Virus record (IMG/VR): IMGVR_UViG_2645727743_000024
Length of the DNA stretch: 9,819 nucleotides
Strand: one strand, 5' to 3'
From: a virus
Taxonomy: Duplodnaviria > Heunggongvirae > Uroviricota > Caudoviricetes
The notes beneath the pieces are model-generated. The model was given only the letters and a program-made list of their open reading frames with translations. It was not told where the DNA came from and searched no databases. This document shows, piece by piece, positions 1 through 9,819 of the stretch. Position 1 is the first letter of the stretch. The number at the start of each line of letters is the position of its first letter. The translations under genes were made by a program, and so were the position numbers.

Positions 1-168
1 GAAATGCTGAAAATTAATCCACAAATTACCGAAATGGTAGCTAAATACGCTGGGTGTTCTGTAGAAGAAGTAGAACGATGTGTTGAAAAATATTTTTCTC
101 CTTCTTCTCCGTCTACACCTTCCATTAATGAATTAATCAAATTAAAAGCTAAGGAGATTACTAAATGA
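1..168 (+). CDS. 3' end of an upstream gene (partial, start lies left of the window); probably a head-morphogenesis gene by position, function not determinable
   Basis: Frame 1 is open from base 1 for 55 codons and ends at TGA 166-168, overlapping the next ATG (165-167) in an ATGA arrangement typical of translationally coupled phage head genes. No start is visible, so it is absent from the ORF track. Confidence 0.35.
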   Translation, partial: EMLKINPQITEMVAKYAGCSVEEVERCVEKYFSPSSPSTPSINELIKLKAKEITK

Positions 169-527
169 TTATTGATTTAGACACTCTGTTTCCAGTTCGA
201 AAGACTTTCACAGATATTGTAAGTTATTGTACTGATCCGTTTGCCTCTGTAGAAAACAAGGTTTTTGCTTCTCTTCCTGCTGATGTTGAGTGCGGCGACT
301 TGATCACCAGCACGGGCGCTAAATATGAATCAGGAGATGATATCTATGTTGTTATGAGTGAATTTGTAACGGCTGGAGCAAACAAGCCTGTAGATGTTTT
401 ACGTAGCAATGCTGGCCTTGTGTGCATCAAAGCTGATGCGCTGAATGCTGTAAGTGAAGCAGCAAAAACAGCATTAATTAAAAAAGGCTTCCAGCTTGAA
501 GGCTTTAATACGGTTTTCACTTCTTAA
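165..527 (+). CDS. hypothetical phage head protein (possible decoration or head accessory protein by position, directly upstream of the major capsid gene)
   Basis: 120-aa ORF with AAGGAG at 151-156, 8 nt before ATG 165; stop TAA 525-527 lies 18 nt before the capsid gene. Position mirrors lambda D before E, but I see no convincing sequence similarity to gpD. Confidence 0.6.
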   Translation: MIIDLDTLFPVRKTFTDIVSYCTDPFASVENKVFASLPADVECGDLITSTGAKYESGDDIYVVMSEFVTAGANKPVDVLRSNAGLVCIKADALNAVSEAAKTALIKKGFQLEGFNTVFTS

Positions 528-545
528 TAAAAGGAATAATAATAA

Positions 546-1574
546 ATGATTCTAGGTAATGATTACGTTGATTTAGCTCCTCTGTTCTCTGCGCATAGCA
601 CTAGAAACTATCTGCTTTCTACTCTCGACTTCACTGATTCTGTAGGGGTTACATCTCATAAAGTAGCTGTTTCCCAGCTTGTCGAAAGCAACGAATCTCT
701 CTTTAACAAAGAGACAAGCCGTTTTAGTTCTGAACACAACGTTACTAAGCGAGAACAAGGTAAAGAATGGCTGATTGAAATCCCGTATTTTCTTCGTGAA
801 GATGTGATCCGTCCTTCTGATGTTCAAGGCAAACGTAAGCCAGGCACTGATTTTCAGGAAACACTCACTGATATCTATGCGGAATATATCGCTAAACACA
901 ATGTTGCATTCCAGCGTACTAAAGAGAGCGTGTTGGCGGCTTCTTTGTTCTCTGGCAAAACTTACACGCCTAAAACTGATGATGTGTTAATTGAGTGGGG
1001 CAAGCTGTTTAATGTGACACCTATGAAAGCCACTGTGACCGCTTCCAGCACTGACACCACGAAGATTTTTAAAGAATTTGATCAGATTGCTACGAATATT
1101 ATCGACAGAGCACAAAGCCAGGCGTCAGCGGTAGAGCGTATTGTTGTTTTCTGTAAGCCGGAAGCCTTCTCTGCAATTCGATTCTCTGCGGGTATGGCAA
1201 ACGCATTCCAGTATGTAAGCCCACTGGAAGAGGGGAACGTTGTGTATCAGCGTCGTGACCTGCTGCCAGGGGTGACAGCGTTCACTATTCCAGGAACTAA
1301 CATTGATGTTGTTAAACTGGTAGATCCGCTACACCTTGCACATATGACCGCTGACGCTGTAGCTGTGCCTAAATTCTCTAAGGGTAGCGGAATTTATACC
1401 AATATCTTCGGGGCTGCTTCCAGCACCTTTGAACTGATTAATGCCGCTCCTGCTGAGGTGTACAGCTATAGCTATGAATCTTCTCGTGGTGATGCTGTTA
1501 ACGTTGTTACAGAGAATAGCCAGATGGTTGTAAACCACGGCGTTGGCTTCTCAGTTCAAATCACTGTAAAATAA
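546..1574 (+). CDS. major capsid protein, lambda gpE-like (Phage_cap_E family)
   Basis: 342 aa, close to lambda gpE (341 aa). Recalled gpE-like stretches: APLF, HKVAVSQL (gpE EKVYLSQI) and IVVFCKPEAFSAIRF (gpE IIVFDPKGWALFRSF). AAGGA at 531-535 precedes the ATG; a strong terminator follows. Confidence 0.8.
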   Translation: MILGNDYVDLAPLFSAHSTRNYLLSTLDFTDSVGVTSHKVAVSQLVESNESLFNKETSRFSSEHNVTKREQGKEWLIEIPYFLREDVIRPSDVQGKRKPGTDFQETLTDIYAEYIAKHNVAFQRTKESVLAASLFSGKTYTPKTDDVLIEWGKLFNVTPMKATVTASSTDTTKIFKEFDQIATNIIDRAQSQASAVERIVVFCKPEAFSAIRFSAGMANAFQYVSPLEEGNVVYQRRDLLPGVTAFTIPGTNIDVVKLVDPLHLAHMTADAVAVPKFSKGSGIYTNIFGAASSTFELINAAPAEVYSYSYESSRGDAVNVVTENSQMVVNHGVGFSVQITVK

Positions 1575-1592
1575 TATTTTAACGTGTAATAG

Positions 1593-1627
1593 AGGCGTGG
1601 CGTGTATTCACGCTTCGCCTTTTTTTA
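1593..1627 (+). terminator. rho-independent terminator downstream of the major capsid gene
   Basis: Stem 1593-1604 pairs with 1609-1620 (12 positions, one T-T mismatch and one G-T wobble), 4-nt loop TATT, then TTTTTTT at 1621-1627. Confidence 0.6.
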
Positions 1628-1659
1628 TTTATTTTTAAATTTTGAGAGGTGATTAAAAT

Positions 1660-1863
1660 ATGGAAGTGATTTTGAAATCAAAAAATGGTGTACACGTACA
1701 TTTAGATGCTAATGATTCTAGAGGCTTGTTAAATCTGAAATATCTATGTTCTCTTTTAGATGTTCCCTATGAAGGAGTAAAAGCCCGTATGTTCAGACTA
1801 AACGAGAGTATTGATCAGGCTCTACACCATTTCTTAAGCAAAGAAGGTGGTAAAAATGATTAA
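1660..1863 (+). CDS. hypothetical small protein (67 aa), first gene of a three-gene cassette
   Basis: ATG 1660 preceded by GAGAGGTGA (1644-1652); stop 1861-1863 lies 14 nt before the next gene's ATG. No recognisable motif. Confidence 0.5.
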   Translation: MEVILKSKNGVHVHLDANDSRGLLNLKYLCSLLDVPYEGVKARMFRLNESIDQALHHFLSKEGGKND

Positions 1864-1877
1864 TAAGGGGATTTTAA

Positions 1878-3707
1878 ATGTTAGAAATTAACACTTCTAA
1901 AATTAAGAACACAGTAACATTTAGTGTAGATAAAGACAGCTTGAAAAAAGCGAAAGACTCTATTACAGGCTTAAAGGAATTCGCAGAAAATATCAAGCCA
2001 GCTAAATTGAGATTTGATAGTGTCACTAAAGGCTATAAGAAAGCACAAAGTGAAGTAGACAAGATTGCTCAACAGAAAGCTAAAACAGAAAAACAGAATC
2101 AAAGAGCACAAGCTGCCGCAGCAAGAGCACAGGCAAGGCAACAGCAACAAATAGCAGCACGTAAGGAGAAAGCTGAACTAAAGCTTTTAGACGTTGGATC
2201 AAGCATTAGTGCAATGCACCGCCTCTCTGTAGCGGAACAATATAAAGCTATTGCACAGGCTAGAGAGATAGCCAAACAATATGAGCAAGGGGCTATCTCG
2301 CTTGCACGTATGAATAGCCAGATGAAACGCCTACAACAGCAACAACGTAAGATTAATGGCAATAGAAAAGCACAATTAGCCCCCGTTAAGGGAGGATCAG
2401 GGAATTCCGCCACTATGGGCGCTCTGTTATTTGGAGGCGCTACGGCTGCCGCTGGCGTGATGGCTATGAATAAAGCAAATGAATTCGTTACTAATAGTTT
2501 TGCCAATGCTGAGACACAAGGAGAATTAATCCAACGTGCAAGGCTTGGCGGTGTAGACGTTAACCAGATGTATAATATTACAGAATGGGCGTATAGAAAC
2601 GGCGTTGACTCTATGATGGGGGATCAAGGGGCTAGGAAATACCTGGATCAGATGAAAGATGTTAGGGAACGTGCCGCAAAATCCTATAGTGAAGCTGAAT
2701 TAGTGAAAGACAAGAAAACCGGAAAATCTGAATGGAAAGGCGGTGATAACGCTATTAATGAACTTCTAAACATTGGAGTTATTAACAAAAGCGACCTTAA
2801 AAAATTTGCTGATAATCCAGCCGGATTAATTTCTAAGGCTGTTAATGGAATGATGAAAAAAGGGTTTTCAGATTCTCAAATTGGACAACGTTTAGAAGAC
2901 CTGGGCGATGATTTGATGCTTACATCAAAATATTGGCAACGTTCCGTTAAAGATGTACAAGAAAGTATTAATCAGCAAAAAGCCTCTGGAAAATGGCTAA
3001 CAGAAACACAGCAAGACTCTATTGTTAAATTCAGAGAACTAAACAGACAGCTTTCACAGCTTTCTGATGCAAGACAAGTAGCATTCGTAGACGGCTTTAT
3101 GAAATCTCTTGATCCAAAAGTAACGGAAGAGTTTATGAAAAACCTTTCTAATCTCACTCCGTATTTTACGAAGCTAGGGGAAGCTGTAGGAAGTCTCTTT
3201 GAGGCTATTATGAAGATTGTAAACTGGTTTAATCGTAATGATGATAAGACAGATGCTATTCAGAAAAATTTAGGTGATGCACCGCCTTTGAGTAATGAAG
3301 GGATGAAACAGCATCTTTCTAATCTCGTTCCTGACCAATATAAAGGCGCTGGCACTGCAACAACTACACCTGATAATAGTCATTCTCTATTTAATACGAT
3401 TAAGGGATTGCTTTTCGATGATAATTCTTCTGTGTCAGATGTAAAAATGTCAGTCAGCGAAGCACCGATAACCAATCTCAAACAGGGTGCTTTAAATAAT
3501 CTTGCAATGACAACTCCGGCTTATAATTTATCTCCTGTATTCAATCTGAATCCTACATTTGAAGTGGTAACGGAGGTTCCGCTTACTATTAATTCTGACA
3601 CATCCAGATTAAGCGATTATGTGGATTTTACAGCGAGAGCAAGTCGGGATAGCTTCTTGAAATCATTAACATTAACCAGCTTATCAGGACAATCTAACGG
3701 CGGGTAA
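1878..3707 (+). CDS. hypothetical 609-aa protein with Gln/Ala-rich coiled-coil region and a Gly/Ala-rich hydrophobic segment; possibly a virion internal, ejection or tape-measure-like protein
   Basis: RBS AAGGGG 1865-1870, 7 nt before ATG 1878. Residues about 55-160 are Q/A/K/R-rich heptad-like (AQQKAKTEKQNQRAQAAAARAQARQQQQIAARKEKAELK); residues about 170-197 GGSGNSATMGALLFGGATAAAGVMAM look membrane-spanning; the C-terminal third is S/T/N-rich. Function is inferred from architecture only. Confidence 0.75.
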   Translation: MLEINTSKIKNTVTFSVDKDSLKKAKDSITGLKEFAENIKPAKLRFDSVTKGYKKAQSEVDKIAQQKAKTEKQNQRAQAAAARAQARQQQQIAARKEKAELKLLDVGSSISAMHRLSVAEQYKAIAQAREIAKQYEQGAISLARMNSQMKRLQQQQRKINGNRKAQLAPVKGGSGNSATMGALLFGGATAAAGVMAMNKANEFVTNSFANAETQGELIQRARLGGVDVNQMYNITEWAYRNGVDSMMGDQGARKYLDQMKDVRERAAKSYSEAELVKDKKTGKSEWKGGDNAINELLNIGVINKSDLKKFADNPAGLISKAVNGMMKKGFSDSQIGQRLEDLGDDLMLTSKYWQRSVKDVQESINQQKASGKWLTETQQDSIVKFRELNRQLSQLSDARQVAFVDGFMKSLDPKVTEEFMKNLSNLTPYFTKLGEAVGSLFEAIMKIVNWFNRNDDKTDAIQKNLGDAPPLSNEGMKQHLSNLVPDQYKGAGTATTTPDNSHSLFNTIKGLLFDDNSSVSDVKMSVSEAPITNLKQGALNNLAMTTPAYNLSPVFNLNPTFEVVTEVPLTINSDTSRLSDYVDFTARASRDSFLKSLTLTSLSGQSNGG

Positions 3708-3741
3708 TTCCCGCCATAACATTACAAGGAAAATTATTATT

Positions 3742-4455
3742 ATGGCGACCGCCGGGATTTTAACCATACGTGCAGCAAATACTCCAGAACAACACGTTCA
3801 GGCTGTTTACAAAGCAGAACAAGATATAAACTCTACAAAAAACGAAAATAGCAAAGCTAATAAAACAAAAGGAGAGAATGGTTTTGCTATTGTTACCAGT
3901 GGGCTGGCTTCTTCTGGCAATGATGTTTATGAAAATTATATGGCACTGGCTTTTGACAGTGTTGACGATGTGAACGTGAGACGTTCGGCAGATGTTACAA
4001 GCTACCCCGTAGAAAATGGTGCTACTGTGTCTGATCACGTTCAAATTAAAAACAATAAGTTTTCTCTTAAAGGAAGGATCACTGAAACACCGATTAAAAG
4101 CGATCCTGGCTTGTTAAAGAGTGCAGGGGTGAACGGGAACAGAAGATCATTAGCAATTGATTATCTGAATCAGATTATGGACAGTAGACAGCCTTTTCTT
4201 CTTGTTACAGAAAATAAAACTTTTGAGAACGTTGTTTTAACAGGCATCGAATACACAGAAGAGGCAAGCGAATCCCTGGTATTTGATCTTAGCTTTGAGC
4301 AGATCAGGCTCGTTTCGTATGGCACTGTAAACACTGTAGCTATCAAAACACAGCCATCTAAGAACATCGGGGCGAATATGAAAAAACGTGTTAACACTGA
4401 AAAATCAAGTAGTGAAGGTGAAGACACTATTACTCCTGCCTTTAAACAGGAATAG
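3742..4455 (+). CDS. hypothetical 237-aa protein, third gene of the cassette
   Basis: RBS AAGGA 3726-3730 before ATG 3742; the N-terminal about 60 aa are K/N/E-rich low complexity, the rest has alternating hydrophobic and polar stretches. No recognisable catalytic motif. Confidence 0.7.
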   Translation: MATAGILTIRAANTPEQHVQAVYKAEQDINSTKNENSKANKTKGENGFAIVTSGLASSGNDVYENYMALAFDSVDDVNVRRSADVTSYPVENGATVSDHVQIKNNKFSLKGRITETPIKSDPGLLKSAGVNGNRRSLAIDYLNQIMDSRQPFLLVTENKTFENVVLTGIEYTEEASESLVFDLSFEQIRLVSYGTVNTVAIKTQPSKNIGANMKKRVNTEKSSSEGEDTITPAFKQE

Positions 4456-4536: not shown

Positions 4537-5871
4537 CTATGGTGTTGTTTTACGCCTTAAATTTGATTTTTTATTGATTGATAAGCCTTTCTCTATTTCA
4601 GGGTAGCGTAGAAGCTCAATATATTTTTTAAGCTCTACTGGAGAAGCTGCATTCTTGCTATATGTGCGGAATGTCTCTGTATTGCCGCGTGTATGGCCCA
4701 GGAGAAGGGCGATCCTGTCTTCTGGAATTTGATTTCGATCAAGAAGCTGTGCTACTCCGTGTCTCAGAGAATGAAACACCTTCCTTTCTGTTCCCTTTTC
4801 CCCTAAAGCCTTTCGTTTAGCTCTTGTAAATCTCTGCGTGTGCCACGTGGAACGCTTACCATCAGCACGCTCTGTAATGCTGGCGTGATAGAACAAAAAG
4901 CCATTATGAGGCTTTTCACGCAGCGACAACACCAACGGAGTGATAAGGCTATGTACAGGCACAACACGTGCCGCAGCTTTCGTTTTTCCCTGTGTGATTT
5001 CAAAACACAGCACACCTTCGATCTCTTTCACATCGTCTATTGTGAGACTTGCTATCTCATTGATCCGCATACCTGTATATAAACCGATAAGACACAAAGC
5101 CATCATTTCTTTGTTTTCTGCTGAATTACCGGAAAATACTTGCAACACCTGCAATAGCTCTTTGTTAGAAAATGCCTCGTAGCTCTCTCTACTTTGTGCC
5201 ACATCAAGCCTATGCCCTCGCCAGGGGGAGAGCGCCCTTTCTGGCGCATCGTGGTAACGTGATGAAGCTAACTCCCATAGCTGGGCCATTGGGCTGATAT
5301 AATTTGCAATTGATTGTTGTGAAAGGGTTTTTTGCATGTGTTCTATCCAGCCTGTAACAGTGGTGCGGCTTACATCTTGCAATGCAATATCAGGCTTTTT
5401 ACGGTAGGAGAGAAACATCTCTACCGCTTTTCTTGCCTTAGCTAAAGTGGCTGGCTTCTTCTTCGTGCTGTTAATTGTCAGGTAGATTTCAAGAATTTTA
5501 AGCAATGACGGACACGAAGACGCTGTATCTTGCATTCTGGTAGCTGTTTTGGCGTATTTAGCCTTACTGCGTAACAGTTCCAGCGTGTTCTCTATTGTGC
5601 TGTTTACAGGAGCGACACTCTCCCGTAGACAATGGTATTCATCTGCAATCTGATCACGCTTTCTACGTGCAACACGAAGATTACTTGTGTGTAGACTTCT
5701 GACAAACGTCCTTTTTCCTTCAAAAAAGGGCTGCATATACACAGGCAGCGTGATCCTTAAATAGTAGTTACCGTAAGAATCACAGATTATGTATTGATTG
5801 GGCTTGTATCTCATAAACTCCCCGGCTAAAGTGTCGGAGCGTTTGTAATGTGAAAATTGATTGTAACGCAT
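4537..5871 (-). CDS. tyrosine recombinase / phage integrase
   Basis: 444-aa ORF with catalytic-domain motifs: Arg in TGMRINE, HSLRHG, LLGH and a C-terminal Tyr in RTYSK. ATG at 5871 has no Shine-Dalgarno; an in-frame ATG at 5814 (425 aa) has GGGGAG 3 nt upstream. The N-terminus does not resemble the P4-type arm-binding domain as I recall it. Confidence 0.85.
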   Translation of the reverse strand: MRYNQFSHYKRSDTLAGEFMRYKPNQYIICDSYGNYYLRITLPVYMQPFFEGKRTFVRSLHTSNLRVARRKRDQIADEYHCLRESVAPVNSTIENTLELLRSKAKYAKTATRMQDTASSCPSLLKILEIYLTINSTKKKPATLAKARKAVEMFLSYRKKPDIALQDVSRTTVTGWIEHMQKTLSQQSIANYISPMAQLWELASSRYHDAPERALSPWRGHRLDVAQSRESYEAFSNKELLQVLQVFSGNSAENKEMMALCLIGLYTGMRINEIASLTIDDVKEIEGVLCFEITQGKTKAAARVVPVHSLITPLVLSLREKPHNGFLFYHASITERADGKRSTWHTQRFTRAKRKALGEKGTERKVFHSLRHGVAQLLDRNQIPEDRIALLLGHTRGNTETFRTYSKNAASPVELKKYIELLRYPEIEKGLSINKKSNLRRKTTP

Positions 5872-5876
5872 AGAAA

Positions 5877-5906
5877 ATGATAATTTTTTCTATAAGATTC
5901 AATCAA
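5877..5906 (-). promoter_or_regulatory. candidate sigma70 promoter for the integrase
   Basis: On the - strand: TTGATT (5906-5901), 18-nt spacer, TATCAT (5882-5877). Predicted start falls near 5871, which would favour the 5814 start codon. AT-rich context makes chance matches likely. Confidence 0.2.
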
Positions 5907-5957
5907 TTAGTAATGGTCGTAGGTGATGGCATTAACACGAGATTAATCGAGTGTTTT

Positions 5958-5976
5958 ACTCCTATTATCGGCACCA
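5958..5976 (+). repeat. attachment-site core: 19-nt copy of the 3' end of tRNA-Thr (thrW type) without a tRNA body
   Basis: ACTCCTATTATCGGCACCA matches my recollection of the thrW 3' end (T-stem 3' half, acceptor 3' strand TATCGGC, discriminator A, CCA). Upstream sequence GTGTTTT does not continue the tRNA, and no GCCGATA 5' acceptor strand is present about 70 nt upstream. It lies between the integrase 5' end and the CP4-like module. Confidence 0.6.
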
Positions 5977-6255
5977 TTAAAATCAAATTGTTACGTAAGA
6001 TCTTATCATTCTCCCACCAAAAAATTATCTTAATGTAACAGCTGGTGTAAGTAAATTCTATCAACGAAGATCAATCTTATCTACTGACCAAAAAGGCCTG
6101 ATAGGGCTTCGCTCACTATACATCCTTGGCTGCAGGTTTAGTTGTACACCACTCCTAAATTTAATGTGTTGGCAATGTGTTCAATAAAGCTCGAACAAAT
6201 TAGCTCATTATGATCGGTTAATACTTCAACTTCTGGTTGCATGATTGTTTGTCCG

Positions 6256-6292
6256 TAAAAAGATAACGCGCCTGCCGGGTAGTAGCAGGCGC
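6256..6292 (-). terminator. candidate rho-independent terminator downstream of the toxin gene
   Basis: Perfect 8-bp stem GCGCCTGC (6268-6275) with GCAGGCGC (6285-6292), 9-nt loop; on the - strand followed by GTTATCTTTTTA, an interrupted T-run. Confidence 0.4.
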
Positions 6293-6357
6293 ATTACGCA
6301 ATAGGTAAACAAGGGAGGAAGTTCAGAAATGTAAATCGGGAAGGTTGTACGCAATGT

Positions 6358-7037
<680 letters not shown>

Positions 7038-7055
7038 TACAGTTCTCCACTATTG

Positions 7056-7277
7056 TCAGTTCAGGGTGATGCTCATCAGGCAGGTATAGGGCCCATTGCG
7101 GTCCTGGCGGCGTTCGGCGTATACCGCGAGGACTCCGGCGATATCCGGAACGTCCCTGCCGGTGTAATGACAGACGCTACCGTGCCACTGGTATTTGCCG
7201 GTGCAGTAGCGAAAGATTCGGGACTCAGGATGCTGGCGGTATATCGTCATTGCCCTGCGTTTACTGATAATTTTCAT
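7056..7277 (-). CDS. DUF987 family protein (YeeT/YkfH-like)
   Basis: 73 aa from ATG 7277 (MKIISKRRAMTIYRQHPESRIFRYCTGKYQWHG...), resembling recalled YeeT. GAGG lies 8 nt upstream. The track start at 7289 is a non-ATG (TTG) start overlapping the RadC-like stop. Confidence 0.7.
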   Translation of the reverse strand: MKIISKRRAMTIYRQHPESRIFRYCTGKYQWHGSVCHYTGRDVPDIAGVLAVYAERRQDRNGPYTCLMSITLN

Positions 7278-7285
7278 GTAATACC

Positions 7286-7762
7286 TCAAAGCAGACCGTG
7301 TTCTGCGAACGAATAGATTTGCCTGCCACCGACAATCAGATGGTCAGGGACACGGATATCCACCAGCTGAAGCACCTGAACCAGTCGCTGCGTGAGGGTT
7401 TTGTCGGCCTGGCTAGGTGTCGTCTCGCCGGAAGGATGGTTATGCGCGAGTATCACCGCCGCCGCGTTGAAGTGCAGAGCACGTTTGACCACCTCCCGGG
7501 GATGCACCTCGGTGCGGTTAATCGTGCCGGTGAAGAGCGTTTCATGGGCAATCAACTGATTCTGGTTGTCCAGATACAACACCCGGAACTCTTCCCGCTC
7601 AAGCGCGGCCATATGCAGTCGCAGCCATTCACGTACGGCGTGGGTAGAGGTGAAGGCTACGCCGGGCTCATGCAGGTGGCGGTCCAGAGCCCTGAGCGCC
7701 CGCTGAATGAGACGCCGGTCCTGTGGCGTCATCTCGCCGGGTAAAAAGGAAAGCTGTTTCAT
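7286..7762 (-). CDS. RadC-like JAB/JAMM-domain protein (YkfG/YeeS/YfjY family)
   Basis: 158 aa; HNHPSG motif (LAHNHPSGETTPS) and C-terminal DHLIVGGRQIYSFAEHGLL typical of the family; AGGAG precedes ATG 7762. Confidence 0.85.
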   Translation of the reverse strand: MKQLSFLPGEMTPQDRRLIQRALRALDRHLHEPGVAFTSTHAVREWLRLHMAALEREEFRVLYLDNQNQLIAHETLFTGTINRTEVHPREVVKRALHFNAAAVILAHNHPSGETTPSQADKTLTQRLVQVLQLVDIRVPDHLIVGGRQIYSFAEHGLL

Positions 7763-7777
7763 CTGTTGCTCCTTCGG

Positions 7778-8236
7778 TCAGTCGATAATACGCAGAATGG
7801 CGTGAGCCTCTGGATGTTGCATGGCATACTCCCGCAGGCGGTAATAGTGTGCGGTCATCGCGTCACATTCTGTACGGCAGGCATGGTGGCTATACGCAAT
7901 CAGGCAGACAGCAATACCTGCTGCTTCTGCACTCATTTGGGCATCGTTACCGTTCAGGCAGTTAAACAGACGCCATGTCTCATCGTTGTCAGGCTCGGGG
8001 GACATAAATGCGCCGCCATTGCTGAGGGTGTAGAACGACCAGATACCACCGCTGTAGCCCTCACAGAAGCGGTCCATCCAGGCGAAGATATGCGGCTCCA
8101 GGAGTAGCCACTGCGGGATAGCGCCAAAGTACTGTGGCCAGAAATCGATACGCTGTTCATCGGGGACCGGCGTGACGGTCAGTTCAAATTCGGGTTGGTT
8201 AGCGGGTGCGAGGTCGTGCTGCGTCTGTGTTATCAT
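7778..8236 (-). CDS. antirestriction protein, ArdB/KlcA family (YfjX/YafX-like)
   Basis: 152 aa from ATG 8236 (MITQTQHDLAPANQ...). The track ORF extends to 8449 but would overlap the upstream DUF905 gene; the internal ATG has GGAGA upstream and follows a terminator-like hairpin. Confidence 0.8.
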   Translation of the reverse strand: MITQTQHDLAPANQPEFELTVTPVPDEQRIDFWPQYFGAIPQWLLLEPHIFAWMDRFCEGYSGGIWSFYTLSNGGAFMSPEPDNDETWRLFNCLNGNDAQMSAEAAGIAVCLIAYSHHACRTECDAMTAHYYRLREYAMQHPEAHAILRIID

Positions 8237-8251
8237 GGGTATGTCTCCGTC

Positions 8252-8280
8252 AATAAAAACGCCAGCGGCGATGGCTGGCG
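8252..8280 (-). terminator. candidate rho-independent terminator between the DUF905 and antirestriction genes
   Basis: 7-bp stem CGCCAGC (8260-8266) with GCTGGCG (8274-8280), 7-nt loop; on the - strand followed by TTTTTATT (complement of 8252-8259). Confidence 0.45.
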
Positions 8281-8333
8281 TATGGGGATATAAAGTGTGT
8301 TCGGGGAGGTGAATGCGGGTAAATGCTTCGCGA

Positions 8334-8573
8334 TCAGCGGGTAGCCGTGTCTGTACGGATGCCTGAGGTGCGGATATAGCGGTTAAGACCTTCACCGGCA
8401 TCCGGCTCAAAGTTCCATGCCCGCCAGACCATCCGGCCTTCAGTATCACGAACCACCAGACGGAAGTGACTGCCCTGGTCGTCTTCGAGTGTGATATTGC
8501 TGTACGTGGTAGTGACCGCTTGCGCTTGTCTCCGGGTGAAAGGCCCCGGTGGCAGCAACACGGATTGGGTCAT
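8334..8573 (-). CDS. DUF905 family protein (YkfF-like)
   Basis: 79 aa from ATG 8573 ([66 protein letters not shown]...). AGGAG lies 7 nt upstream; the 150-aa track ORF is an N-terminal extension. Confidence 0.7.
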
Positions 8574-8588
8574 TTTCGGGCTCCTGAT

Positions 8589-8623
8589 AAAAGAAAACCC
8601 CGGCAGCCTGCTAGCTGTCGGGG
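8589..8623 (-). terminator. candidate rho-independent terminator downstream of the secreted-protein gene
   Basis: 9-bp stem CCCCGGCAG (8598-8606) with CTGTCGGGG (8615-8623), including one G-T wobble; 8-nt loop; on the - strand followed by TTTTCTTTT, then the DUF905 RBS. Confidence 0.45.
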
Positions 8624-8649
8624 TGGATTTGCTGGGGAAGATGCTACTA

Positions 8650-9117
8650 TCAGTCGTTGCTGCAGTCTCCGGGAGTGGACAGAACTTTCTCAGCGTTCTT
8701 CCGGTCCGCAGTGAAGGTCCCTGCTTTGTGGTCATTGACGTAGACGTCGAACTGCCCGGCCTCAGAGATATTGCTGATGAAGTCAAACCAGGCGTTATCG
8801 CCGTTACGCCAGCCCAGGCTGGACGGAATAATGTACTGCTGGTGATCCATCACTACGGTGATAGTAGTGTCGTCATCGTGCGAACTGACCATCTTGTCAT
8901 CGGCAAGGGTAAGAAAGACTGAATGCTGATAGAAACCATTCTGGTCCGGGTTCCCTGTGCAGTTGATGGTAAACGTCTTTCCGCTGGCTTCGGTCACGCT
9001 GTATTCCGTATTGCCCTGACCGTAACCCTGCTGCCAGAACCCCGGGATAGCAGAGGCATTAAAGCTCGCGAGCAGTACACCCGCCAGCATAAACCGACTT
9101 AGTGAAAGTATTGTCAT
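8650..9117 (-). CDS. secreted protein with N-terminal signal peptide (YkfB/YfjT-like)
   Basis: 155 aa; [23 protein letters not shown] looks like a Sec signal peptide with AxA cleavage site; AGGAGA lies about 6 nt before ATG 9117. Confidence 0.75.
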
Positions 9118-9139
9118 TCTTGTCTCCTTTGTCGTTGTT

Positions 9140-9583
9140 TTATTCCTGATTGTCAGGGTTTGAGGGTATCAGCAGTCGCCCCATCAGTTTGCCGTCATGG
9201 GCGTACTCAAAGTATTTTTCTTTGGTATACGGGTCCGTCACCTCCTGGTATTCCAGTTTGATGTTATCGGCAATACACAGCGCATTCATCAGTGGCTGGA
9301 CGGTTTTTTCCTGCATATCCACGAGGTAGTAGTAACTGCCATCCTCGCAGCCATCGGGCGACTGGCGGGTACGTAAAACCTGCAAGGTGGGACCGGATAA
9401 GTAGTCAACCTGTGACCATTCTTCGCTGACATCATCCTGGTGGCTGACCACATCACTGAAACGCGGTGGGGTGAGGTCCTTAAATTTACTGATGGCCTTC
9501 AGGTCATCACTTCTGTCATCGCATGCGATGAGAAACAGAGTGGTGGCAACCAGCGCCAGCAGAGGCAGTGTTTTACGTTTCAT
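9140..9583 (-). CDS. lipoprotein (YafY/YfjS-like), predicted inner-membrane retained
   Basis: 147 aa; signal peptide plus lipobox LIAC followed by Asp at +2 (Lol avoidance signal). Its ATG (9581-9583) overlaps the upstream gene's TAA stop (TAATG). Confidence 0.8.
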   Translation of the reverse strand: MKRKTLPLLALVATTLFLIACDDRSDDLKAISKFKDLTPPRFSDVVSHQDDVSEEWSQVDYLSGPTLQVLRTRQSPDGCEDGSYYYLVDMQEKTVQPLMNALCIADNIKLEYQEVTDPYTKEKYFEYAHDGKLMGRLLIPSNPDNQE

Positions 9584-9819
9584 TATTTTTTTCCTGAAAT
9601 CAGACGAACCACTTTGGCAAAGACATAAATGCCCACGAAAATACCCACCGGCACGCCGACGAACGGTGTCAGCGCGACACTGGCAGCACCGGCTGCGCCA
9701 CCTCCCGTCAGCAGTGCGGCAACAGTGGCAAGGGTCAGGGCCGCGAGACTGTCGGACACCCCGGTTTTGTTCAGAATGATGACGATGACAACAATGGCGA
9801 TAATGGCAATAACGGGCAT
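9583..9819 (-). CDS. small hydrophobic membrane protein; its ATG coincides with the window edge, so it may be N-terminally truncated
   Basis: 78 aa with two hydrophobic, Gly/Ala-rich predicted transmembrane segments; stop overlaps the start of the lipoprotein gene, suggesting translational coupling. Confidence 0.5.
   Translation of the reverse strand: MPVIAIIAIVVIVIILNKTGVSDSLAALTLATVAALLTGGGAAGAASVALTPFVGVPVGIFVGIYVFAKVVRLISGKK

Follow-up and report, generated by a model that had tools for sequence, protein, structure and literature searches.

Identity of a stranded tRNA-Thr 3' end

The locus analyzed here raises the question of how the last 19 nucleotides of a tRNA gene came to stand, without the rest of the gene, at the border between two pieces of DNA that differ markedly in composition. 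In the stretch of 9,819 nt that was analyzed as a whole (hereafter, the window), GC content is ~39% to the left of this 19-mer and 53-57% to its right. Our analyses indicate, with a probability of about 0.93, that the 19-mer is the attR core of a 12.46-kb element of 39% GC that was inserted at the 3' end of thrW by tyrosine-integrase site-specific recombination. The features of the window are as follows.

1-527 (+): end of a 70-aa ORF truncated where the contig begins, and a 120-aa ORF; conserved small element genes
546-1574 (+): major-capsid-like protein, 342 aa, matching Phage_cap_E over its full length; dN/dS about 0.16
1878-3707 (+): tape-measure-like protein, 609 aa, phrog_16051; dN/dS 0.07-0.08
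3742-4455 (+): Dit-like or baseplate-type protein, 237 aa; dN/dS 0.01-0.04
4537-5871 (-): tyrosine integrase, 444 aa, identified by Pfam and PHROG, with DUF6538, SAM-like and catalytic domains
5872-5957: attP-derived right arm of the element, which separates the integrase start codon from the core
5958-5976 (+): 19-nt attR core, an exact thrW match; in L004, L005 and the composite of L009 and the window, the element has this 19-mer at either end
5977-6357: 381-nt spacer, the attB-derived right arm and left end of a CP4-6-type island; the K-12 spacer is of equal length
6358-9819 (-): arm of the CP4-6-type island, from Pfam, gene calls and the RefSeq annotation of matching genomes, comprising
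6358-6699 (-): ykfI, toxin
6720-7037 (-): yafW, antitoxin
7056-7277 (-): ykfH
7286-7762 (-): ykfG, RadC-like
7778-8236 (-): yafX, antirestriction
8334-8573 (-): ykfF
8650-9117 (-): ykfB
9140-9583 (-): yafY
9583-9819 (-): ypjK/ykfL-like

The 19-mer, ACTCCTATTATCGGCACCA, occurs once in the window, at 5958-5976 on the + strand, and aligns exactly with nt 58-76 of the 76-nt thrW, the gene for tRNA-Thr(CGU), which was called by ARAGORN in E. coli C, K-12, APEC O1, strain 100416 and the Logan assembly L009. These positions comprise the last three bases of the T-loop, the 3' strand of the T-stem, the 3' strand of the acceptor stem, the discriminator base and CCA. In E. coli C, thrW lies at 2944-3019 of the compared sequence (L002), and the match to the window begins at 3001, i.e., with the final 19 nt of the gene. 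A preliminary description of this DNA had proposed that the 19-mer is the 3' terminus of a thrW-type tRNA-Thr and that the sequence upstream of it is not tRNA. The alignment confirms the first point; as to the second, no tRNA was found within the window by either ARAGORN or Rfam (gathering threshold), and a degraded tRNA in register in the upstream 57 nt was ruled out, as only 23 of these 57 bases match thrW. When the window and L009 were scanned with Rfam at the gathering threshold, the sole RNA gene was the intact thrW in L009.

Whatever sequence comes after the core, the 70 nt on its 5' side are the same in the window, L001, L004 and L005. Within the right arm, window 5906-5924 carries a weak, displaced thrW-like vestige (ATTAGTAAT/GGTCGTAGGT, compared with thrW nt 30-54), the score of which was reached in 3 of 2000 shuffles and equalled by one unrelated window. 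A diverged variant of the element in KL53 contains a 14-nt exact thrW match, TGCGAAGGTCGTAG, at about 3970-3983 of L039, offset as in the window vestige. The vestige suggests that the tRNA block of an ancestral attP was longer and is now interrupted by ~30 nt. On the other side of the core, the 15-20 nt that follow CCA are alike among otherwise unrelated thrW-linked elements (T[T/C]AA..AATCAA[T/A]A..TTA; compared in L001, L004, L005, L014-L033 and window 5977-5995), which suggests a shared ancestral segment, from either the region downstream of thrW or attP, that extends past the strict 19-nt identity.

To the right, window 5958-9811 aligns gap-free with K-12, from thrW nt 58 on, at 99.7% identity. 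Both sequences have 381 nt between CCA and the nearer end of ykfI (window 5976 to 6358; K-12 262946 to 263328), in agreement with the earlier proposal that the toxin gene is spaced about 380 bp from the tRNA end as in K-12; because ykfI is on the minus strand, it is its stop-codon end, rather than its start as had been proposed, that faces the 19-mer. Two pigeon strains, PT62 and LP5-1, carry the last ~340 bp of the element and the 19-mer before ykfI (equivalent to window 5615-6800). What is left of the element in these strains is an N-terminal DUF6538 integrase fragment, which resembles what a deletion in the same tandem arrangement would leave behind.

Intact thrW at the far end of the element

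The window represents the first 9,819 nt of draft contig JHRM01000022.1 (GCA_001265465.1). Because this contig starts inside the element, we infer the far end in the window's lineage from assemblies of other samples that are 100% identical to it. Two Logan assemblies, L007 and L009, encode a 609-aa protein identical to that of the window and complete the element. L007 matches the window from end to end at 100% identity and reaches 3 kb further left, while L009 is 100% identical to L007 over 6,711 nt and to the window over 3,704 nt. Leftwards, L009 contains proB, proA and an intact tRNA-Thr(CGU) gene at 1547-1622, which ends in the same 19-mer in direct orientation and is followed by the left end of the element. 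The composite of L009, L007 and the window thus has the order proB, proA, intact thrW, element, 19-mer, ykfI, with 12,458 bp between the repeats (39.0% GC, compared with 53% in the flanks). In the window's lineage, thrW would accordingly be followed by TCAAGAAAATCAATAACTT..., the left end of the element. Since no complete genome is more than 96.9% identical to the window's element, the window, L007 and L009 very probably represent one lineage. Base 1 of the window falls in the 70-aa ORF, and no repeat is seen at that point in L007 or L009.

APEC O1 and strain 100416 also have proA, intact thrW, the element with its integrase and the 19-mer, in the form of direct repeats. The preliminary description had predicted that the opposite end of the element, left of the window, would hold the intact tRNA, and had called for a tRNA scan of the flanking genome. 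Such a scan found intact thrW and the direct 19-mer in L009, ~6.5 kb left of window base 1, and the predicted position holds for the 100%-identical L009 and L007, for APEC O1, for strain 100416 and for 389 complete genomes. It does not hold for AP021891, where the left 19-mer of the element is contained in a 47-nt thrW fragment that belongs to a third element; intact thrW is found to the left of that third element.

The junction across E. coli genomes

A set of 5,426 complete E. coli genomes was searched. Megablast of window 5400-6800 matched 1,021 of them, nearly all of which align only from query position 559 (window 5958), where tRNA-Thr is annotated. Empty sites, in which thrW is followed by the window's right arm, are thus present in E. 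coli C, K-12 and ~1,000 others. A query spanning attL was contiguous in 389 of the 5,426 genomes, while in element-free genomes homology to this query ends at position 273-277, the CCA of thrW. A query for attR that ended at the last base of the 19-mer was covered to at least 80% in 447 genomes; of 40 rows sampled evenly, 37 align as far as this last base.

A further 19 IMG/VR loci and one Escherichia sp. genome have exactly 19 nt of thrW after the right end of the element, and at least five unrelated sequences stand downstream of the 19-mer in these 20 loci. All copies examined have conserved sequence in the 70 nt that precede the 19-mer at attR and in the 70 nt that follow it at attL; what the two junctions share is just the 19-mer and one T (at 5977 in the window, beyond the 19-nt core). 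Two left contexts of the element were found, namely intact thrW or a 47-nt thrW fragment. The KL53 variant, whose integrase is 53% identical to that of the window, is located at the same 19-mer before ykfI. The varied downstream neighbors and the KL53 variant together form the pattern predicted by repeated site-specific integration, and not that of deletion or chance. With direct repeats, an adjoining integrase and empty sites all observed, the earlier interpretation of the stranded fragment as the mark of an insertion at a tRNA gene is well founded.

Excision would restore attB, in which thrW is joined directly to TTAAAATCAAATTGTTACG. The predicted attP, ...CGAGTGTTTT-ACTCCTATTATCGGCACCA-TCAAGAAAATC..., had no exact-pattern match in IMG/VR or in JGI metagenome contigs, where assembled contigs detect rare circles weakly; an attR control pattern matched 19 IMG/VR loci. 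No excisionase or AlpA was recognized among the small ORFs of the element. The element may still be able to excise. Separately, a 41-kb replicon-like record, NZ_LT599830.1, has a 47-nt thrW 3' fragment at 21406-21452, where no feature is annotated; this fragment could represent attP in a phage or plasmid that integrates at thrW.

The integrase adjoining the 19-mer

The integrase is the last gene of the element, and its start codon lies 86 nt from the 19-mer. RefSeq homologues begin at the second Met, equivalent to window 5814, which gives a protein of 425 aa. The active site, with residues placed by alignment to XerC-like and XerA structures and by motif positions, is complete (R269, K296/K298, H367, R370, H393 and Y404). 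Compared with three diverged copies, the integrase has a dN/dS of 0-0.08 at a dS of 0.04-0.07, and five other genes in the part of the element covered by the window, at a dN/dS of 0-0.25, are also under purifying selection. This selection on the integrase and five other genes indicates that the element is maintained rather than decaying. No close relative of the integrase was found in sequenced phages.

The integrase of CP4-6 in K-12, IntF, is 24% identical to the window integrase, in the catalytic domain only. The possibility that the window integrase is an IntF homologue that reuses the CP4-6 att site was ruled out by this low identity and by the difference between a 19-nt and a 47-nt repeat.

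Proposed course of integration

Tyrosine integrases are known to act at tRNA 3' ends, for example those of P4 at leuX and of P22 and the Shigella serotype-converting phages at thrW. In the classical case, attP carries the 3' end of the tRNA, so that the gene is restored upon integration while the displaced 3' fragment remains as a direct repeat, and the integrase gene adjoins attP. For the element studied here, the attP of the circular form would have a copy of thrW nt 58-76 flanked by the right arm (window 5872-5957) and the left arm. The integrase would then recombine attP with the 3' end of thrW at a crossover presumably located inside the 19-20 bp block of identity. Intact thrW would be rebuilt at attL, the left junction, which lies ~6.5 kb beyond the left end of the window; at the right junction, attR, the second copy would be stranded at window 5958-5976, 86 nt beyond the integrase start codon. 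In the window's lineage, thrW would already have had a CP4-6-type island (ykfI-yafW...) before the element arrived, so that the newer element would sit closer to thrW and the older island beyond the 19-mer. The fragment would accordingly represent a recombination scar rather than a gene, and could serve as the substrate for any future excision.

The proposed course differs from known cases in some respects. While the P4 integrase is encoded next to the tRNA, that of the element is at the tRNA-distal end, beside attR. In comparison with classical tRNA integration, the block of identity is also short, at 19-20 bp, and begins at nt 58 inside the T-loop.

Alternative explanations

The junction could have been imported or reshuffled by homologous recombination, either as a pre-formed block of thrW, element, 19-mer and ykfI or in parts, which would make the 19-mer an inherited attR scar. 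We regard this as rather unlikely, even though the element is a mosaic relative to AP021891 (99.7% identity in the junction region, 99.0% in the integrase, 92% in the capsid gene and 96.9% over the whole window) and the right arm is near-identical to a very common CP4-6 arm. The mosaicism shows that elements of this kind are also shuffled by homologous recombination, and the junction in the window may therefore be inherited rather than newly made in its lineage. However, at least five unrelated downstream neighbors and a variant with a 53%-identical integrase at the same junction are hard to explain by flanking homology alone, and import would in any case leave the identity of the 19-mer as an attR scar unchanged.

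It is far less probable that the 19-mer is a decayed CP4-6-type attL, or a thrW pseudogene cut by deletion or rearrangement, with the AT-rich DNA on its left being unrelated. While CP4-6 in K-12 is annotated from inside thrW and its repeat includes these 19 nt, once at the left end of the island, that repeat is 47 nt long and paired with IntF, which is only 24% identical to the window integrase. Moreover, the break at nt 58 is constant, both in the sampled attR alignments and in the 20 extra loci, whatever stands to the right, which is unlike random deletion, and the element on the left does occur with a second 19-mer, in the intact thrW at its other end.

A match due to chance or to an assembly artefact can practically be dismissed, despite the origin of the window in a draft assembly, as the 19-mer was matched in none of 200 dinucleotide shuffles of the window (with up to 3 mismatches allowed), an exact match has an analytic expectation of ~7e-8, and the junction recurs in one NCBI assembly, four Logan assemblies (L007 and L010-L012) and complete genomes.

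Tandem islands at thrW

With integration of the element at thrW as the preferred reading, the 19-mer marks a border between two tandem islands and not a border between an island and the core genome, because the DNA on its right is itself a CP4-6-type thrW island. CP4-6 in K-12 resembles the left-hand element in that it targets thrW, with the intact tRNA on the left and a minus-strand integrase on the far right that is followed by a thrW 3' fragment, and the right-hand 3.85 kb of the window are CP4-6 DNA (99.7%). Unlike the element, which has a 19-nt repeat (T-loop to CCA) and a DUF6538-type integrase, CP4-6 has IntF and a 47-nt repeat; its attR in K-12, beside intF, is a 47-nt thrW fragment that extends from the anticodon arm to CCA. 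The gene content of CP4-6 is also unrelated to that of the left-hand element. CP4-6 therefore fails as owner of the repeat at 5958-5976, given its 47 nt as compared to 19 nt and an adjoining integrase that is not of the IntF type. A literature search found no paper on CP4-6 excision that gives att details.

Among complete genomes, AP021891 is the one distinct case in which the full integrase-19-mer-ykfI junction was found (99.7% identity). There, proA is followed by intact thrW, a ~11-kb trbJ/trbL element with a 357-aa integrase, a 47-nt thrW fragment, an element of the 12.46-kb type, the 19-mer and ykfI, in this order. Since CP4-6 and AP021891 show 47-nt repeats and the window a 19-nt repeat, thrW gathers elements with different integrases and different tRNA segments. 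In AP021891, RefSeq annotates a 112-nt "tRNA-Ser" at 7974-8085 of L001 (NZ_AP021891.1 3574453-3574564), where ARAGORN finds no tRNA. The 3' 47 nt of this feature are the thrW fragment, from the anticodon arm to CCA, that represents the attR of the trbJ/trbL element, and the "tRNA-Ser" is probably a mis-annotation. A "tRNA-Ser" label also lies under the match in strain FAM21845.

ExPEC strains have islands at thrW, among them VAT-PAI and PAI-APECO1-thrW. The latter has been catalogued at 295124-315041, and thrW is among the most used tRNA integration sites (PMC7545054). The APEC O1 copy of the element (NC_008563 295120-307364) makes up the thrW-proximal 12.2 kb of this island. While the catalogue lists a single 20-kb island (PMC7545054), the internal 19-mer shows two tandem units, the second of which is the vat module with its own truncated integrase; in the window, the partner of the element is the CP4-6-type arm instead. 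The 19-mer is a textbook scar at a documented hotspot (PMC7545054) and in principle nothing new.

Gene content of the element and a possible satellite role

Among the proteins of the element, Pfam, PHROG and NCBIfam recognize only the integrase, a resolvase, an HTH_36/O-like initiator and the capsid-E-like, tape-measure-like and Dit-like proteins, and PADLOC gave no defence match among ten element proteins. The serine resolvase gene lies near the left end (L009 2805-3344, minus strand; L001 9396-9935) and is missing in APEC O1 (L004); relatives of the element in other genera have a small tyrosine recombinase where the E. coli copies have the serine resolvase. Left of the window, at L009 3345-5486, a 2.1-kb ORF-free stretch contains clustered iteron-like tandem repeats with units of 13-35 nt. 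This stretch is upstream of the HTH_36/O-like initiator gene, and a motif, GATACCCCTATCAA, is common to the E. coli and Enterobacter elements (Enterobacter: L036 5548-5639). The iteron-like region is likely to represent a replication origin.

Three genes of the element have counterparts in the phi92-like phage Paula. Its gp135 shares 60% identity with the 237-aa protein, and its tape-measure protein gp134 shares 53% with the N-terminus and 29% with the C-terminus of the 609-aa protein. Between the capsid-like protein, along its full length, and the major capsid protein of Paula, identity is 21%. The order of the capsid-, tape-measure- and gp135/Dit-like genes is the same in window 546-4455 and in Paula (L013 618-9805). 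Relatives of the tape-measure-like gene were found in 134 of 50,697 phage records, all of which are virulent myoviruses of the Stephanstirmvirinae type with genomes of 142-153 kb. The best matches of the capsid-like protein among sequenced phages reach only ~24%, with Pseudomonas myovirus capsids, and none is therefore informative as a relative; this protein belongs to a chromosomal family that is distributed across Enterobacterales with 37-95% identity.

Relatives in Klebsiella, Enterobacter and Serratia have the same 12-14 kb architecture (L034 1127-15142; L036 1669-15156; L038 3138-15446), and the Dit-like gene is absent from them. Those in Klebsiella and Enterobacter are located at tRNA-Gly(CCC), with a 24-27-nt repeat that extends from the T-loop to CCA and lies 71-92 nt beyond a terminal minus-strand integrase. 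The Klebsiella tape-measure-like protein matches the same 134 records, with E. coli phages at the top, so that this comparison, a test of whether a helper relationship tracks the host, gave no signal of co-evolution.

The element resembles phage satellites that have structural genes or depend on virulent phages (cfPICI, the PLE of Vibrio cholerae and PICMI) in its size of 12-14 kb, an integrase at one end, a capsid-like gene of its own, an ORF-free iteron region by an initiator-like gene, and a tape-measure-like gene with phage kin in only one virulent myovirus group. Searches of the element with Pfam, PHROG, NCBIfam and PADLOC found neither the P4-like hallmarks (psu/delta/sid/alpha) nor those of PICI (alpA, pri-rep and terS), the cfPICI set (HK97 capsid, portal, protease, connectors and terS) or the PLE set (serine recombinase and PLE RepA). 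The element likewise gave no sign of a portal, protease, terminase, head-tail connector, AlpA or primase-helicase. Among the papers searched, none describes the element family or mentions DUF6538, and none links satellites to Stephanstirmvirinae or thrW.

The family, as read here, integrates at thrW in E. coli and at tRNA-Gly(CCC) in Klebsiella and Enterobacter, and has an iteron-type origin with initiator-like, capsid-like and tape-measure-like genes, to which the E. coli copies add the gp135/Dit-like gene; the tail genes would have phage kin only among virulent myoviruses of the phi92 and phAPEC8 types. A role as a satellite or in assembly interference is plausible, with indirect hints from structural genes whose homology is confined to Stephanstirmvirinae-type phages, from the iterons with their initiator-like gene and from purifying selection, and it is possible that the phi92-like gene set serves a satellite or acts as a decoy. 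Taken further, and as a tentative and somewhat doubtful proposal, the element could belong to an undescribed, Enterobacterales-wide family of tRNA-integrating elements that exploit virulent Stephanstirmvirinae, either as phage satellites or as assembly-interfering defence islands.

Implications

Base 5958 of the window is the exact boundary between two horizontally acquired units. The 20-80 kb "thrW islands" of E. coli can, on this basis, be separated into parts, i.e., the element with the 19-nt repeat, the CP4-6-type island with the 47-nt repeat and others, and the order within a thrW array records the order of arrival. The practical use lies in annotation, as exemplified by the RefSeq 112-nt "tRNA-Ser" that is really a thrW fragment. 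Any novelty would reside in the inserted element rather than in the 19-mer: if the satellite reading is true, the element would be an E. coli counterpart of PLE-ICP1 and would represent a new family of satellites or defence elements directed against virulent coliphages of a group used in phage-therapy collections.
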